Positions 56 through 5,937 of a stretch of DNA of 5,937 nucleotides are shown one piece after another. The DNA is taken from IMG/VR virus record IMGVR_UViG_3300045988_003949. One strand, 5' to 3'. How positions within the stretch are numbered: position 1 is the stretch's first letter; each line of letters begins with the position of its first letter. Position numbers and translations under genes: made by a program. This DNA is from a virus. The notes beneath the pieces are model-generated. The model saw only the letters and a program-made list of their open reading frames with translations. It searched no databases and was not told the origin of the DNA.

Positions 56-143
56 AGAAAACTGCTGGATAAACAGAACGTGCGAGCTGTCCCGGCAGAG
101 AATCAACCAATTGGAAAACGAAAACAAAATAATGTGGATGTAA
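1..143 (+). CDS. 3' part (frame 3, codons start at base 3) of the wrapped 61-aa ORF (...ENCWINRTCELSRQRINQLENENKIMWM*). It duplicates 5883-5937 and extends to the stop at 141-143.
   Basis: Open frame continuous with 5840-5937 through the 55-nt terminal repeat, with stop TAA at 141-143. The ORF track does not list it because its start codon lies at the other end of the window. Confidence 0.5.
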   Translation, partial: YRSSIDGQIRFPYTFSKKENCWINRTCELSRQRINQLENENKIMWM

Positions 144-1280: not shown

Positions 1281-1671
1281 ACGATACGAAGAAGGGCGAG
1301 AGCCCTTCTTTTCCAATCCTGGAGAAAAAATCTTAAAGCAATACGTTTGGACGAAGGACGAAAAAGGGGAAGAAGTGCTGCAAGAAACTGCACCAATCGA
1401 TATCCAGCAGGAAATTGAAAGCTATGCGGATGAATGTGATATCAAAAACATTGTCCGAAAAGCGAGTTTTGACCCGCAGTTCCTAAAAAGCCTGTCAGAG
1501 GGAGCACTAAACGGAACGGAAGTAGATATCACCGAGTTTCCGCAGAACATTCACGAGTATCATCGCATGATCGCAACAGCACAGGCAAACGCCATGAAAC
1601 TAAAAGAGCTGCAGGAAGCAGCAAAAGAAGAGCCTAAAACAGAGCCTAAAACAAAGGAGGAAGAAAAGTGA
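1273..1671 (+). CDS. Hypothetical 132-aa acidic, helical protein with a Lys/Glu-rich tail (KEEPKTEPKTKEEEK). From its position and composition it is a candidate internal scaffolding (VP3-like) protein.
   Basis: ATG 1273 lies 8 nt after GGGAGGG (1258-1264). The 1153 start in the ORF track would add a basic N-terminal extension in another gene's frame. The stop TGA 1669-1671 overlaps the VP1 start as GTGA. The function is inferred only from synteny (immediately upstream of the capsid gene) and composition. Confidence 0.6.
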   Translation: MNKRYEEGREPFFSNPGEKILKQYVWTKDEKGEEVLQETAPIDIQQEIESYADECDIKNIVRKASFDPQFLKSLSEGALNGTEVDITEFPQNIHEYHRMIATAQANAMKLKELQEAAKEEPKTEPKTKEEEK

Positions 1672-3341
1672 ATCGAAACAATGAACGGCACTTTAACCAG
1701 ATTCCAGAAGTGAAAGCGAGCCGAACAAGTTTTAACCGCGACCAAACGGTTTTAACAACGTTCGACTCCGGCAAGCTGATCCCATTCTATGTTGACGAAG
1801 TATTACCGGGTGATACATTCAGAGTAGACACGTCAGCAATCATCCGGATGACAACGCCAAAATATCCGGTAATGGACGATGCATTTATCGACTTCTACTA
1901 CTTCTATTGTCCTAACAGAATTCTGTGGGACAACTTCAAGTACTTTATGGGAGAAGTAGAAGCAACACCATGGATGCCAGCAAAAGAATACGCAGTACCA
2001 CAAATCGTAATCAAAGGAACGGAGGCAAAACCAGCACCAGATGAAAAATCCATTCTAGACTATATGGGAGTGCCGACTAAAATCAAAAAAGAATTTAGAA
2101 TTAACGCACTACCCGTAAGAGCGTACGTAAAAATTTGGAATGAATTTTTCAGGGATGAAAACGTAGATAACAAAGCAACACTAAGAACGGACGATGCAAA
2201 CGTAGCCTACGAATTCGGAAATGAAACTTGGGTACAGCAAGCAGAAGACGACGCCTACACCGGCGGAAACTTGTTACCTGTAAACAAATTCCACGACTAC
2301 TTCACCAGCTGTCTGCCTTATCCTCAGCGCGGGCCAGCGGTAACACTGCCGATGGAGGGAAACGCAATGATAAAAGGATTCAACGACCAAAAACTTAAAG
2401 ACCAAACAACTCTATATGCAAACAGCTTTTTTGACGGAAAAACAACACCAGCCAACATAAAAGACAAACTGTATGCAATCTCAACATACGGAGGTGAAGA
2501 ACAAGCATATGTAAACGTCGGAACAGGAGAAGGGGACGTCCATAAAGTAGTGTACCTGGGCGCAGACCTCGGGTCAGCCACAGCAACAACCATCAACGAC
2601 CTGAGAAAAGCCGTAGCAGTACAACAGTACTATGAAGCGCTGGCACGAGGTGGCAGCAGATACCGCGAACAGGTACAAGCACTGTGGGACGTGGTTATCA
2701 GTGATAAAACCGTACAAGTGCCGGAATACCTGGGCGGCGGCAGATATCATGTCAATATCAACCAAATCGTGCAGACCAGCGGACAGCAGACAAACAACGA
2801 CACGCCAATTGGCGAAACTGGTGCAATGTCAGTAACGCCAATCAACGAAAGTAGCTTTACCAAATCGTTTGAAGAGCATGGTTTTGTAATCGGTGTATGT
2901 TGTGTGCGGCACAATCGCAGTTACCAGCAGGGACTTGAACGTTTCTGGAGCAGAAAAGACAGGCTGGACTACTACGTGCCACAGTTCGCAAACTTAGGTG
3001 AACAGCCTGTAAAAAAGAAAGAAATCATGCTCACCGGCGATGCAAAGGACGAAGAAACGTTCGGGTACCAGGAAGCATGGGCAGACTATCGCATGAAACC
3101 TAACCGGGTATCTGGCAAAATGAGAAGTAATGCGGTAGGAACACTGGACTTCTGGCATTATGCAGACTACTATACCCAAGAACCAACACTGTCGCAAGAC
3201 TGGATGGAAGAAGGCAAAATCGAGATTGCACGCACGCTCATCGTGCAAGATGAGCCTCAGTTCTTCGGAGCTATCCGCATAGCAAACAAAACCACAAGAC
3301 GGATGCCATTGTACAGTGTACCGGGCTTGTACAAACTGTAA
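1668..3341 (+). CDS. VP1: Major capsid protein VP1 (Microviridae F-protein family), 557 aa.
   Basis: The N-terminus HFNQIPEVKASRTSFNRDQTVLTTFDSGKLIPFYVDEVLPGDTF is the hallmark Phage_F capsid signature. Its size is typical of gokushovirus VP1. The GTG start lies 7 nt after AAGGAGG (1654-1660). Confidence 0.93.
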   Translation: MNRNNERHFNQIPEVKASRTSFNRDQTVLTTFDSGKLIPFYVDEVLPGDTFRVDTSAIIRMTTPKYPVMDDAFIDFYYFYCPNRILWDNFKYFMGEVEATPWMPAKEYAVPQIVIKGTEAKPAPDEKSILDYMGVPTKIKKEFRINALPVRAYVKIWNEFFRDENVDNKATLRTDDANVAYEFGNETWVQQAEDDAYTGGNLLPVNKFHDYFTSCLPYPQRGPAVTLPMEGNAMIKGFNDQKLKDQTTLYANSFFDGKTTPANIKDKLYAISTYGGEEQAYVNVGTGEGDVHKVVYLGADLGSATATTINDLRKAVAVQQYYEALARGGSRYREQVQALWDVVISDKTVQVPEYLGGGRYHVNINQIVQTSGQQTNNDTPIGETGAMSVTPINESSFTKSFEEHGFVIGVCCVRHNRSYQQGLERFWSRKDRLDYYVPQFANLGEQPVKKKEIMLTGDAKDEETFGYQEAWADYRMKPNRVSGKMRSNAVGTLDFWHYADYYTQEPTLSQDWMEEGKIEIARTLIVQDEPQFFGAIRIANKTTRRMPLYSVPGLYKL

Positions 3342-3379: not shown

Positions 3380-4243
3380 ATGGGGGCATTATCAGGATTC
3401 TTAACAGCGCTAAACGTAGCAGGAAACGTAGCAAATACGGTCGGAACAATCGCCGGAGCAGCAAAAAACGTTGCTGGAGCTTTTGGCGGATGGGGTCAGA
3501 CAGGCAACAGCCAAAGCCAGGGCGGAAGCACAAGCCAAGGTGGTGGACACTCAGAGAGCGGAAGCCAAGCAGGCACAAACATTCAGCAAGTAAACGACTG
3601 GCTAAAACAAGCATACGCATACCAAGGGCAAGAAGCAGCCATGCAAGGTAAATACAACAGTCAAAGCATGTTAAAACAGATGGGTTACAACACCTTACAA
3701 GCAATCATGCAGGGCGTATATAACCACATTGAAAACAGCGTAGCGATGAACTACAACAGTGCAGAGGCACTAGCAAACCGTGAATGGCAAGAGCACATGT
3801 CAAGCACAGCATACCAGCGTGCAGTTGAAGATATGAAGAAAGCCGGCTTAAATCCGATTTTGGCATTTTCTAACGGAGGTGCAAGCACACCAGGCGGATC
3901 TGCAGGAACAATTAGTGGGGCAAGTATGGGACTTGCAAGCAGTAGCGCACTAGGAGTAAGCAGAAGCGGTGGATTTGTACCGAATGCATACTCAAGTTCA
4001 AGCTGGAGTAAAAGTGACTGGTACAACGCCGCAGAAAGCTGGCAGCAGATGCTCAGTTCAACACACATGACGCCATACGGACTGCAAAAGGCGCTTACAG
4101 AAGTAGGAAGCAACACAAGCAAAGCCATTACGGATGCAACAGCAAAGGCAGAAAAGGGCGCAAGACAGAGCAGAAGCATGAAACCGCAAGATAAAACGGG
4201 AAGCTACGGAGAAAAACGAAAGCCGGGTGATTATTTAAAATGA
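3380..4243 (+). CDS. VP2: Minor capsid / DNA pilot protein (VP2, phiX H-like), 287 aa.
   Basis: A Gly/Ala-rich, low-complexity N-terminal half (MGALSGFLTALNVAGNVANTVGTIAGAAKNVAGAFGGWGQTGNSQSQGG...). It sits immediately downstream of VP1, as in gokushoviruses. Its stop overlaps the VP4 start as ATGA. Confidence 0.75.
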   Translation: MGALSGFLTALNVAGNVANTVGTIAGAAKNVAGAFGGWGQTGNSQSQGGSTSQGGGHSESGSQAGTNIQQVNDWLKQAYAYQGQEAAMQGKYNSQSMLKQMGYNTLQAIMQGVYNHIENSVAMNYNSAEALANREWQEHMSSTAYQRAVEDMKKAGLNPILAFSNGGASTPGGSAGTISGASMGLASSSALGVSRSGGFVPNAYSSSSWSKSDWYNAAESWQQMLSSTHMTPYGLQKALTEVGSNTSKAITDATAKAEKGARQSRSMKPQDKTGSYGEKRKPGDYLK

Positions 4244-5259
4244 GTTGTTACAAGCCATTAATAAGGCTGTACAACCCGGAAAACAAAGATATAAGCGGGC
4301 GGGTGTATTCACTTGCCCGCTTTTCTGAAATATCGGGAAAACAGCTCAAATATGAAGATTTGATGTACAGAAAAAACATCATGTTGATACCATGCGGGCA
4401 GTGCATCGGATGCAGAATCAGACAAAGAGAGGACTGGACAACACGAATAGAATTAGAAGCACGAGACTATCCAAGAGAAGAAGTATGGTTTATAACATTA
4501 ACCTATGACGATGATCATGTACCAGGCATGATAGTAAACACAGGCGAAATCATGCGAAAAGTGCAATACGTCTGGAAACCGGGAGAGAAGCGTCCTGAAA
4601 GCGTCCAAACTTTGCTATATCCTGACATTCAAAAGTTCTTAAAACGCCTCAGAAAGGCTTACAGGGGCAAATTACGCTATTTTGTGGCAGGAGAGTACGG
4701 AGAACAGACAGCAAGGCCACATTATCATATGATACTGTATGGATGGGAACCAACAGATCTAGAACACTTGTACAAGATACAGCACAACGGATATTTTACA
4801 AGTAAATGGCTAGGAAACCTATGGGGAATGGGTCAAATACAGATAGCACAAGCAGTACCGGAAACATATAGATATGTTGCAGGGTACGTGACGAAAAAAA
4901 TGTACGAAATTGACGGTCAAAAGGCAAACGCGTACTATGAACTAGGGCAACAAAAGCCTTTTGCATGTATGAGTCTTAAACCAGGCTTAGGAGATCACTA
5001 TTACCAAGAGCACAAAGAAGAGATCTGGAGACAAGGCTACATCCAATGCACAAACGGCAAGCGCGCACAAATTCCACGCTATTATGAAAAAATGATGGAA
5101 GCTGAAAACCCACAAAGATTGTGGAGAATTAAACAGAACAGACAGGCGGCGGTAATCGCGGAAAACCGGCTAAAATACGAAAACGCAGACTTTGAAGAGC
5201 AGTGTAAAACGAAAGAGAGAGTGACAAGGAAGCAAATGAAGAAGAGAGGGACACTTTAA
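4240..5259 (+). CDS. VP4: Rolling-circle replication initiator VP4 (phiX A-like HUH endonuclease), 339 aa.
   Basis: Cys cluster PCGQCIGC (nt 4393-4413). RCR motif 1 WFITLTYDD (about 4486-4512). Motif 2 RPHYHMILYG, with the HUH histidines at about 4720-4728. Motif 3 YRYVAGYVTKK, with the Y-x3-Y-x2-K catalytic tyrosines at about 4867-4899. Confidence 0.93.
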   Translation: MSCYKPLIRLYNPENKDISGRVYSLARFSEISGKQLKYEDLMYRKNIMLIPCGQCIGCRIRQREDWTTRIELEARDYPREEVWFITLTYDDDHVPGMIVNTGEIMRKVQYVWKPGEKRPESVQTLLYPDIQKFLKRLRKAYRGKLRYFVAGEYGEQTARPHYHMILYGWEPTDLEHLYKIQHNGYFTSKWLGNLWGMGQIQIAQAVPETYRYVAGYVTKKMYEIDGQKANAYYELGQQKPFACMSLKPGLGDHYYQEHKEEIWRQGYIQCTNGKRAQIPRYYEKMMEAENPQRLWRIKQNRQAAVIAENRLKYENADFEEQCKTKERVTRKQMKKRGTL

Positions 5260-5278
5260 CAGTGTCATGGTGTCACCT

Positions 5279-5310
5279 AGCCCAGTACCTATCAAGTAAG
5301 GTACTGGGCT
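5279..5310 (+). other. Perfect 11-bp stem-loop: AGCCCAGTACC, loop TATCAAGTAA, GGTACTGGGCT.
   Basis: Exact inverted repeat at 5279-5289/5300-5310 with a 10-nt loop, 20 nt after the VP4 stop. The loop motif TATCAAGTA recurs at 5350-5358. Confidence 0.6.
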
Positions 5311-5370
5311 ATTGCCATTTAAAGGCTCCATGTATCGGACCATTCAGTTTATCAAGTAGATATACTTTAT

Positions 5371-5413
5371 CGCGCGTGCGCACGCGCGCGAAGCGCGCAC
5401 GCGCGCACGCGCG
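5371..5413 (+). other. GC-only imperfect palindrome and hairpin: CGCGCGTGCGCACGCGCGCG, AAG, CGCGCACGCGCGCACGCGCG. The stem has 18 of 20 positions paired and is built from alternating purine/pyrimidine.
   Basis: Read directly. The two 20-nt arms are nearly reverse-complementary with a 3-nt loop, and each arm is a strictly alternating Pu/Py tract that could form Z-DNA. Confidence 0.6.
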
Positions 5414-5563
5414 GCTCTTGGGCGCTATTGTTCGCAAGCTCACAAGCGCCGTATAATATATAACTTGTTGTAGGAGTAGTAGTAGAGATAGTGGAAAAGT
5501 TGAAAAGTACTAAAATTTAACGTTAAAGCGTAAATAAAAAGCAAAAAACAATGTTAAAAGTTT

Positions 5564-5592
5564 TGTTGAAAACTTGTTGAAATGTTGAAAGT
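5564..5592 (+). repeat. Iteron cluster A: three copies of TGTTGAAA(A/T/G) at 5565, 5576 and 5584. Related copies lie at 5499-5507 and 5553-5560.
   Basis: Direct repeats of the GTTGAAA core spaced 8-11 nt apart. Confidence 0.6.
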
Positions 5593-5625
5593 CCGTCAAA
5601 ATGACGAAAATCATTGTGCAACTTT

Positions 5626-5665
5626 TTGTTGAAAACCTGTTGAAAGTGTTGAAAGTGTTGAAAAC
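5626..5665 (+). repeat. Iteron cluster B: four tandem copies of TGTTGAAA(A/G)(C/T), with GTTGAAA cores at 5628, 5639, 5648 and 5657.
   Basis: TTGTTGAAAACC TGTTGAAAG TGTTGAAAG TGTTGAAAAC. The last three copies repeat every 9 nt exactly. Confidence 0.65.
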
Positions 5666-5785
5666 GCGCACAGCGCTAAAAAGGAATGGACCAGCCGAGC
5701 TCCGCATGCGCTACGCACGGCAGGGCGCTAAAGCGCCATCAAAACAAAGGGACAAAACCGGCTACTGATATATCAATTAAAATAC

Positions 5786-5814
5786 TTGACAATTGTAAAG
5801 AAATATGCTATAAT
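5786..5814 (+). promoter_or_regulatory. Consensus sigma70-type promoter: TTGACA at 5786-5791, exact 17-nt spacer, TATAAT at 5809-5814.
   Basis: Both hexamers match the consensus 6/6 with 17-bp spacing. An SD-like AGAGAGGTAAGG and an ATG at 5840 follow downstream. An AT-rich, UP-like tract and the palindrome TGATATATCA (5766-5775) lie just upstream. Confidence 0.7.
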
Positions 5815-5839
5815 ATAACCAGAAAGAGAGGTAAGGATC

Positions 5840-5937
5840 ATGAAAAACTGTTACGAATACACAGAAAACAAAAAAGTAAAGTTCTACCGTTCAAGCATTG
5901 ATGGGCAAATCCGTTTCCCTTACACTTTCAGCAAAAA
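5840..5937 (+). CDS. 5' part of a 61-aa hypothetical protein that wraps the contig junction (MKNCYEYTENKKVKFYRSSIDGQIRFPYTFSKK...). It continues at window bases 56-143.
   Basis: ATG at 5840 lies 7-9 nt after the GAGAGGTAAGG SD and directly downstream of the consensus promoter. The frame stays open across the terminal repeat and ends at TAA 141-143, immediately before the peptidase RBS. Confidence 0.55.
   Translation, partial: MKNCYEYTENKKVKFYRSSIDGQIRFPYTFSK
5883..5937. repeat. Second copy of the 55-nt terminal redundancy, the overlap left by assembling a circular contig.
   Basis: Identical to bases 1-55. Confidence 0.9.

Follow-up and report, generated by a model that had tools for sequence, protein, structure and literature searches.

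The stretch of DNA analysed here (the window; 5,937 nucleotides (nt), IMG/VR record IMGVR_UViG_3300045988_003949) is a circularly permuted gokushovirus genome, and our subject is the gap at positions 5260-5839, which separates the stop codon of VP4, the gene for the replication protein (Rep), at 5259 from the next convincing start codon, an ATG at 5840 with a strong ribosome-binding site (RBS) ahead of it. Shortly behind VP4 lies a hairpin (5278-5311) that is likely to be a strand-specific replication origin, and further downstream a portable repeat cassette (5452-5665) whose layout resembles that of the unwinding region in bacterial chromosome origins. We consider it very probable that the gap is a non-coding control region with a promoter and, with rather less assurance, probable that it is a composite of replication and transcription control elements in five modules: the hairpin (module A), a GC-rich palindrome at 5371-5413 (B), the cassette (C), a conserved leader at 5666-5785 (D) and a promoter at 5786-5814 (E).

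Positions 1-55 of the window are repeated exactly at 5883-5937, and from this 55-nt terminal redundancy it follows that the genome is circular with a true length of 5882 nt rather than 5937. The gap makes up 9.9% of this length, close to the "about 10%" given in an initial annotation of the sequence, which had also called it non-coding and unusually long. No open reading frame (ORF) in 5260-5839 exceeds 71 amino acids (aa) and none is kept intact among relatives, so the non-coding assignment stands, whilst the length is unusual when set against classical gokushoviruses of 4.1-4.7 kb but typical within the gut clade to which the phage belongs (genomes of 5.3-6.2 kb). The region is conserved, with 64 GenBank phage records matched by blastn, most of them unannotated there. 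The stable hairpins, direct repeats and consensus promoter noted initially are all present, and the dense secondary structure proposed for the gap is found in one part of it: as single-stranded DNA (ssDNA), 5255-5455 is far more stable when folded than shuffled sequence (+ strand, z = -7.5; - strand, z = -8.2), whereas the repeat-bearing part, 5446-5670, is unstructured (z = +0.2 and -0.1).

The hairpin downstream of VP4

Module A, the putative Rep (VP4) origin hairpin, is read on the - strand and has a perfect 13-bp stem whose arms are 100% complementary. The + strand of its loop (5291-5298) reads ATCAAGTA and the - strand TACTTGAT, where TACTTG/AT fits the phiX174/pC194 nick core CTTG/AT. 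Directly 3' of the hairpin stands an invariant flank, GGTGTCACC at 5269-5277 (GGTGACACC on the - strand), which forms part of the same origin module. The loop and the GGTGACACC-type flank are invariant in an alignment of 35 diverse gokushovirus sequences, and among 77 distinct sequences from relatives the loop stays constant while the stem covaries. The compensatory changes take CCCAG/CTGGG to CCAAG/CTTGG, CCTAG/CTAGG or GTGCC/GGCAC, and some clades carry a wholly different stem; in the 35-sequence alignment double changes occur in nine of the nine stem pairs tested, and the covariation score of 0.359 compares with 0.138 after shuffling (0/500) and with at most 0.121 in slid controls. All relatives whose VP4 is at least 55% identical have the loop TATCAAGT 25-35 nt past the VP4 stop, as do some at 44-47%, independently of the orientation of the cassette.

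When IMG/VR was searched for the module with the pattern ACTTGAT-N9-17-GGTGACACC, more than 120 gokushovirus contigs were recovered, and blastn matches to the hairpin region came from GenBank gokushoviruses of tunicates, birds, bees, blackflies and a hot-spring lake, where the match falls on the opposite strand when read against the genes. The hairpin occurs across the Gokushovirinae, in Chp2, SpV4-like and environmental gokushoviruses. The gene that it adjoins, VP4 (4240-5259, + strand; Pfam PF23343, REP_ORF2-G2P, E = 8e-18), encodes a phiX-type HUH Rep. By analogy with the phiX174 gene A protein and Reps of the pC194 type, VP4 would nick the extruded loop at TACTTG/AT, on the strand opposite the genes. 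Module A appears to be a new structured variant of the phiX174/pC194-type origin, apparently serving as the origin for the whole subfamily; to our knowledge, the replication origin of gokushoviruses has not yet been mapped. The initial annotation had proposed the gap as the replication origin, and the hairpin, with its invariant loop, covarying stem and nick core, largely bears this out; what did not hold were the assignment of the repeats as Rep iterons and the strand, since the motif is found on the - strand. For the packaging signal also suggested there, the analysis gave no evidence.

A second nick-like copy, TATCAAGTA (TACTTGATA on the - strand; direct repeat D11), lies on the - strand at 5350-5358, 60 nt from the hairpin. 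It has neither a strong stem nor the GGTGACACC flank, and many relatives whose VP4 is at least 84% identical carry it at an equal offset. The - strand around it (TCTACTTGAT; TCTACTTGATAAA) matches the Chp2 loop over 10 nt, and it could be a secondary or termination site. At the end of VP4, a further, small hairpin (GACACT-TTAAC-AGTGTC, 5250-5266) spans the stop codon, and the downstream GGTGTCAC repeats a part of it (GTGTC), so that the VP4 end and the origin flank have sequence in common.

Among known origins, the viral-strand origin of phiX174 and G4, a 30-nt element (CAACTTG/ATATTAATAACACTATAGACCAC) inside gene A, has in common with the window an ACTTGAT(A) core by or within the Rep region, a Rep of the same HUH superfamily and strict conservation of the origin element among related phages; the phiX174 sequence CAACTTGATA holds the matching core, and CAACTTG/ATA... 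is present in 544 records. Unlike in phiX174 and G4, the core in the window sits in the loop of a 13-bp hairpin, is intergenic, is followed by GGTGACACC and not by the phiX key sequence, and lies on the strand opposite the genes. The double-strand origin of pC194 and pUB110 (TCTTGATA; TTCTTATCTTG/ATA) likewise joins the nick heptamer CTTG/ATA to a phiX-type Rep, but its flanks differ and it is paired with an orientation-dependent single-strand origin, for which no equivalent structured element was identified in the window. Among the gokushoviruses themselves, Chp2 (AJ270057, 2904-2941) has a 14-bp intergenic hairpin with the loop TCTACTTGAT and SpV4 a long perfect hairpin at position 512 with the loop ATTACTTGTTATA, both on the coding strand, and environmental gokushoviruses carry the same hairpin element with the GGTGACACC flank. 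Chp2, SpV4 and the classical genomes have a coding-strand motif, as a rule 160-210 nt ahead of VP4, together with T-rich silent sites; the window has an inverted motif shortly after VP4 and A-rich silent sites.

Motif strand and silent-site composition

All genes of the window phage lie on the + strand, and the Microviridae are defined as positive-sense ssDNA viruses. We oriented 150 genomes by VP1 and compared the strand of the motif with the AT skew at 4-fold degenerate sites of VP1. In 93 genomes, mostly of 4.1-4.8 kb and usually with the hairpin 160-210 nt ahead of VP4, the coding strand carries the motif, and the skew averages -0.41, reaching +0.34 at most; in the other 57, among them the window, the opposite strand carries it, and the skew averages +0.61 and never falls below +0.29. 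The nucleotide frequencies at these sites are near-mirrored, at A.19, C.18, G.16 and T.47 for the coding-strand motif and A.47, C.19, G.22 and T.12 for the opposite one. The inverted state arose four times on the VP1 tree, in lineages with AT skews of +0.82 (L202), +0.89 (L211/L212/L246), +0.76 (L194) and +0.60 (the large gut clade), and L202 is nested among classical genomes with skews of -0.17 to -0.25. Chp2 and SpV4, which we take to package the positive-sense strand, show the coding-strand pattern, T accounting for 0.51 and 0.65 of their 4-fold sites. The loci covered in this observation of hairpin orientation and skew are L140-L142, L143-L250, L137 and L139.

A preference for NNT codons has been reported in single-stranded DNA phages and put down to C-to-T pressure acting on the strand that they package. 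The motif-bearing strand thus behaves as the packaged strand in both groups, and because the silent-site skew flips with the motif strand, the window phage is predicted to package the strand antisense to its genes. Taken together, these sequence comparisons argue strongly that the hairpin acts as a strand-specific replication signal, and on balance they lead us to favour antisense packaging in the window phage. Rolling-circle synthesis would displace the motif-bearing, antisense strand, which would then be packaged in the capsid, as the skew supports. The whole-genome GC and AT skew profile of the window was uninformative as an origin locator. A precedent for an origin flipped relative to the genes is offered by Circovirus and Cyclovirus, as set out in the ICTV Circoviridae profile, and a study of mitochondrial origin inversion (PMC13602327) describes a compositional skew that reverses afterwards; both concern other replicons and other Rep families, and the likeness is one of analogy only.

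The repeat cassette and its surroundings

Module C is a portable 210-nt cassette on the + strand with sharp conservation borders; in blastn searches with its core, the block at ~5452-5665 is conserved at 70-95% in 45 records. It opens with a TA-rich tract, TATAATATATAA, and the invariant AACTTGTTG (together 5452-5470), a candidate unwinding element that shows the highest conservation within the cassette, both in the GenBank relatives found by blastn and in the IMG/VR set; the TA-only tract itself (5452-5463) is conserved as a TA-rich stretch of ~12 nt. There follows a trinucleotide array, TAG GAG TAG TAG TAG in the window (5471-5485) and TAG nnG TAG TAG TAG in the cassettes at large, whose 3'-GAT-5' repeats resemble DnaA-trios. 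After a 4-nt, mostly G-rich spacer come tandem DnaA-box-like sites at 5490-5506, AGTGGAAAA and GTTGAAAA, with TGTGGAAAA in most relatives. The later part consists of a variable A/T stretch, four TGTTGAAAR repeats (in the window a TGTTRAAAR cluster, sites c-f, 5552-5591), a further variable stretch and four more TGTTGAAAR repeats (sites g-j, 5627-5664, spaced 11, 9 and 9 nt). TGTTGAAA occurs seven times within 5564-5663, where 0.42 would be expected, and none of 200 shuffles reached seven. The repeat variants shift toward the DnaA box TGTGGATAA, which site d matches perfectly in 17 relatives, and TGTGGAAAA is common among them. Compared with the rest of the genomes, 9-mers like the DnaA box are enriched in the cassettes 86-fold when perfect, 20-fold at one mismatch or fewer and 7-fold at two or fewer, and they lie overwhelmingly in one orientation (588 vs 62).

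The cassette is mobile relative to its flanks. In MG945447 exactly the cassette block is inverted while both flanks remain collinear, with breakpoints at 5447-5457 and 5662-5664. We found it in 126 microvirus genomes, forward after VP4 in 92, inverted after VP4 in nine and inverted 68 nt before VP4, between VP2 and VP4, in 25; five of the nine genomes with an inverted cassette after VP4 have a VP4 87-95% identical to that of the window. In the last arrangement (L006, 5300-5637, and the other 24 genomes), a diverged hairpin with flank GGTGTCAAC, stem CCGGCACAAG and loop ATAGACAAGGAAG separates the inverted cassette from the start codon of VP4; a CTTGAT loop was not found in this clade, whose 4-fold skew is also A-rich (+0.59). 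The cassette lies ~140-150 nt from the nick hairpin, its repeats begin ~180 nt from it, and they are unchanged across VP4 identities of 37-100%. The initial view of the repeats as Rep iterons is contradicted by this arrangement, in which they belong to a separate cassette away from the nick hairpin that can be inverted or relocated, is the same across Reps down to 37% identity and has no effect on skew. Iterons like those that Rep binds in CRESS-DNA viruses or iteron plasmids would be expected beside the nick hairpin and to co-vary with Rep specificity. A role for cassette orientation in setting the packaged strand was ruled out, the 4-fold skew being equal for forward and inverted cassettes within a clade.

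Outside the microviruses the cassette was not encountered. Scanning IMG/VR with its left-end motif, in a pattern that includes the trios, returned 120 contigs, four of which are non-microvirus chance matches in Thr-rich coding repeats. Across 185,579 species genomes there was one microvirus contig binned in a metagenome-assembled genome (MAG) and three chance matches in coding DNA, and the cassette was not found in plasmids; on these species-genome and plasmid searches we rejected its capture from a host oriC or a prophage junction. The single match in the genome collection is a complete 5.7-kb microvirus contig, L134 (CAVKUS010000079.1), in a MAG labelled 'Bacteroides sp. CAG:545'. This binning is probably spurious, since the strong Shine-Dalgarno sites and sigma-A-type promoters of the phage argue for a host among the Firmicutes.

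The order of elements in the cassette recalls the basal unwinding system (BUS) of bacterial oriC. According to the published rules, a BUS has a box with at most two mismatches to TTATCCACA and an optional second box with at most four, a spacer of 0-16 bp with a gap of ~4 bp, and at least three contiguous NAN trios, of which 3'-GAT-5' is the commonest, followed by an unwinding element. In the window, AGTGGAAAA has two mismatches and AGTTGAAAA three, and five trios (TAG GAG TAG TAG TAG), a 4-nt spacer and the box follow one another in the right polarity. Among the 126 cassettes, at least three contiguous TAG-type trios stand beside a box in 125, the spacer is 4 nt in 94, and the proximal box has two or fewer mismatches to TGTGGATAA in 71 and three or four in the rest. 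We compared the polarity with the DUE-R1 region (DNA unwinding element (DUE) and box R1) of E. coli (a sequence checked against 5425 genomes) and with the description for C. difficile; the cassette runs from AT-rich tract through trios and spacer to TGTGGATAA on one strand, as does DUE-to-R1 in E. coli oriC. In order and polarity the candidate AT-rich tract, 3'-GAT-5' trios, ~4-nt spacer, tandem boxes and distal clusters agree with the BUS of B. subtilis and C. difficile and the R1-DUE of E. coli. Unlike those, the cassette has degenerate TGTTGAAAR boxes, tightly spaced and nearly all in one orientation, a short DUE, and a place in a 5.9-kb ssDNA phage rather than beside dnaA/dnaN. A BUS is defined in part by its dnaA/dnaN neighbourhood, and the cassette was found in microvirus contigs only; for this reason we liken it to a BUS in construction, and perhaps in working, without filing it as a member.

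Several other identities for the cassette were considered and set aside. Neither of its strands folds more stably than shuffled sequence, which discounts a structured RNA or ssDNA element. An XerCD/dif-like site at the TA-rich end was judged by eye against the E. coli and B. subtilis dif sequences; the XerD arm was unmatched and the would-be XerC arm fell outside the conserved block. Spo0A, ParB and LexA boxes were ruled out as the identity of the repeats on sequence, against their consensuses, the Spo0A-type C variant amounting to ~1%. A complementary-strand origin like G4 ori-c, the phiX primosome site or a plasmid sso also fits the cassette poorly, which is unstructured (z of +0.2 and -0.1) and varies in its orientation relative to the hairpin; the strongly folding hairpin A and the GC palindrome stay candidates for that function.

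This palindrome, module B (5371-5413), is a GC-rich alternating purine-pyrimidine sequence that forms a 20-bp hairpin on both strands. Such tracts occur in 86 of 126 relatives, and 122 of 124 are no more than 130 nt away from the cassette, almost without exception on its VP4 side whatever the cassette orientation. As the hairpin forms on either strand, we regard it as a candidate priming site for complementary-strand synthesis.

Between the cassette and the downstream genes lies module D (5666-5785, + strand), a conserved GC-rich leader with small hairpins (e.g. GGCGC-TAAA-GCGCC) and a mildly stable fold (z = -1.0). The 59 genomes that have it all carry it in the orientation of the genes, and it keeps 79-92% identity even where VP4 is 37% identical. 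L054, L062 and L075 are among the genomes whose VP1 and VP4 are only 37-40% identical to those of the window and in which the leader is 85-92% identical as DNA and the peptidase M15 85-92% as protein; this pattern of identities indicates that leader, promoter and lysis gene may form a block recently recombined between distant gut gokushoviruses. The promoter, module E (5786-5814, + strand), is a sigma-70/sigma-A element, TTGACA-17-TGcTATAAT, which agrees with the consensus at 12 of 12 positions and has an extended -10, and the main transcriptional control that the initial annotation placed in the gap is well accounted for by it. In 60 of 128 relatives the corresponding position holds an extended -10 promoter close to consensus, with a strong Shine-Dalgarno sequence behind it. 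From its consensus match and this conservation, module E would drive the downstream gene block, and the strong Shine-Dalgarno sites and extended -10 promoters hint at a Firmicutes host.

The first downstream ORF begins at the ATG at 5840 behind the RBS GAGAGGTAAGG (feature 5824-5937, + strand); it encodes 61 aa, running on at window positions 56-143 owing to the terminal redundancy, and has no Pfam family. The remaining genes, all on the + strand, are the peptidase M15 (157-549), VP5 (1041-1280), the VP3 scaffold (1273-1671), VP1 (1668-3341) and VP2 (3380-4243). A perfect 12-nt tandem duplication, AGAGCCTAAAAC x2 at 1629-1653, falls close to the 3' end of the gene for the VP3 scaffold, where it encodes EPKTEPKT. 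In GenBank the genome is closest to gokushoviruses of the human and pig gut, at ~83% identity. The sole Rfam match in the window, a weak Termite-leu RNA at 4290-4357 inside VP4 (21 bits against a gathering score of 51 bits, E = 0.4), was judged to be chance.

Alternative readings and implications

The hairpin could instead be a complementary-strand origin, that is, a priming signal on the packaged strand, or a VP4 terminator, with the nick site elsewhere. It lies ~20 nt past the VP4 stop, G4 and phiX do prime at intergenic hairpins, and a strand-specific minus origin would track the packaged strand equally, such that skew cannot separate the two functions. Against this, the loop holds the nick core common to phiX174 and pC194/pUB110, an invariant loop and 9-nt flank conserved over a subfamily and lacking a T run are unlike terminators, the hairpin of classical genomes is upstream and not downstream of Rep, and the window genome contains no further conserved CTTGAT site. 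We therefore consider a priming or terminator function unlikely and a Rep origin at module A the likely explanation. Other points weigh against the polarity argument. There are only four independent inversion events, host codon bias could still be an alternative source of the skew, and the 4-fold GC skew fits no simple deamination model in either group; the link between hairpin and skew would also be expected were the hairpin a complementary-strand origin rather than a nick site. In addition, phiMH2K (L138, AF306496), a cultured Bdellovibrio gokushovirus, has A-rich VP1 4-fold sites (A.46, T.27, G.06) and has neither a perfect hairpin of at least 9 bp nor the ACTTGAT...GGTGACACC module, and it fits neither group.

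For the cassette, we tentatively propose, from its sequence features, that it may bind DnaA, although we hold this at rather less than even confidence, and several observations count against it. The stricter pattern of four trios plus box occurs in 2.8% of shuffled genomes and the window has only the three-trio form; TGTTGAAAR, the commonest repeat, departs from the DnaA box at a normally invariant C/G position; the repeat spacings of 8-9 nt are tighter than in known DnaA arrays; the proximal box is within two mismatches in only 71 of the 126 cassettes; and the TA tract is just 12 nt. Trio conservation in the IMG/VR set arises partly by construction, the retrieval pattern containing trios, and the blastn-derived GenBank set is the unbiased check. 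The DnaA box consensus may also differ from the preference of the host. A different phage or host factor, acting in copy control, partition, transcription regulation or bending, could bind the repeats instead, the TAG array and box likeness then being coincidental. The two to three mismatches between the dominant TGTTGAAAR and the DnaA box, critical C/G position included, would be explained, as would the spacings of 8, 9 or 11 nt; loose BUS-like patterns are not rare by chance, and the cassette lies ~120 nt upstream of the main promoter. We nevertheless find this somewhat unlikely, given that the repeats stay constant while all phage proteins diverge (VP4 down to 37%), which favours a host factor, that their variants move toward TGTGGATAA and not, for example, toward the Spo0A box TGTCGAA (C at position 4 is ~1%), that trio polarity, 4-nt spacer and TA tract all occupy the positions of the BUS model, and that perfect DnaA boxes are enriched 86-fold. 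It is improbable that the cassette is itself the Rep origin, with AACTTG/TTG at 5462-5470 as nick site and the TGTTGAAA repeats as Rep-binding iterons. The invariant AACTTGTTG does resemble both the AACTTG core of phiX and the loop of the SpV4 hairpin (ATTACTTGTTATA), and it adjoins an easily melted TA tract, but this nick-like motif lies outside any hairpin and is also the repeat-junction sequence within the arrays (direct repeat D3), the repeats do not co-vary with Rep, and cassette orientation varies (92 forward, 34 inverted) without a change in skew, which hairpin orientation does track. Least probable is a small protein or non-coding RNA. Two ORFs, one at 5601-5768 (+ strand) and one at 5510-5707 (- strand), remain open in 23-30 relatives, and there is a TATAAT at 5452-5457, yet these ORFs sit in stop-poor repeat DNA and are lost in most relatives. 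When six candidate ORFs of the gap were compared by tblastn with ~130 related genomes none was conserved, most relatives losing coverage or gaining stops, and spacings in the gap differ among relatives by 1, 2 or 11 nt, which are not multiples of three. The gap ORFs have no Pfam match, and 5260-5839 has no Rfam match at E up to 1 and no tRNA; the cassette has neither a terminator nor a -35 element, folds no better than shuffles on both strands and is inverted in close relatives.

We propose that the cassette is an independent module whose action does not depend on its orientation and whose target is the double-stranded replicative form (RF). From its architecture, host DnaA would bind the box arrays, spread onto the TAG-trio strand and melt the TA tract, and this melting would load the host helicase and lead to Rep-independent copying or persistence of the RF, or would aid the opening of the nearby origin. 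The broader scenario, in which the large gut gokushovirus clade and at least three smaller lineages flipped polarity and the gut clade acquired a portable oriC mimic that enables DnaA-dependent, Rep-independent opening or copying of the RF, is a speculative one that we consider doubtful as a whole.

No other microviruses are as widespread in gut and environmental viromes as the gokushoviruses. In the literature we found no description of the hairpin, of the cassette, of DnaA boxes in Microviridae or of antisense packaging. The hairpin, with its TACTTG/AT loop and GGTGACACC flank, offers a precise substrate for VP4 nicking assays, and the relation between motif strand and skew provides a sequence-only rule for predicting the packaged strand of metagenomic microviruses, which bears on strand-aware virome libraries, on mutation-bias models and on host prediction from codon usage. 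If antisense packaging is true, the 'positive-sense' descriptor of the family needs qualification. If the cassette does bind DnaA, it would represent a new way for an ssDNA phage to couple to, or escape, host replication control, and it could underlie the plasmid-like persistence that has been reported for gokushoviruses.

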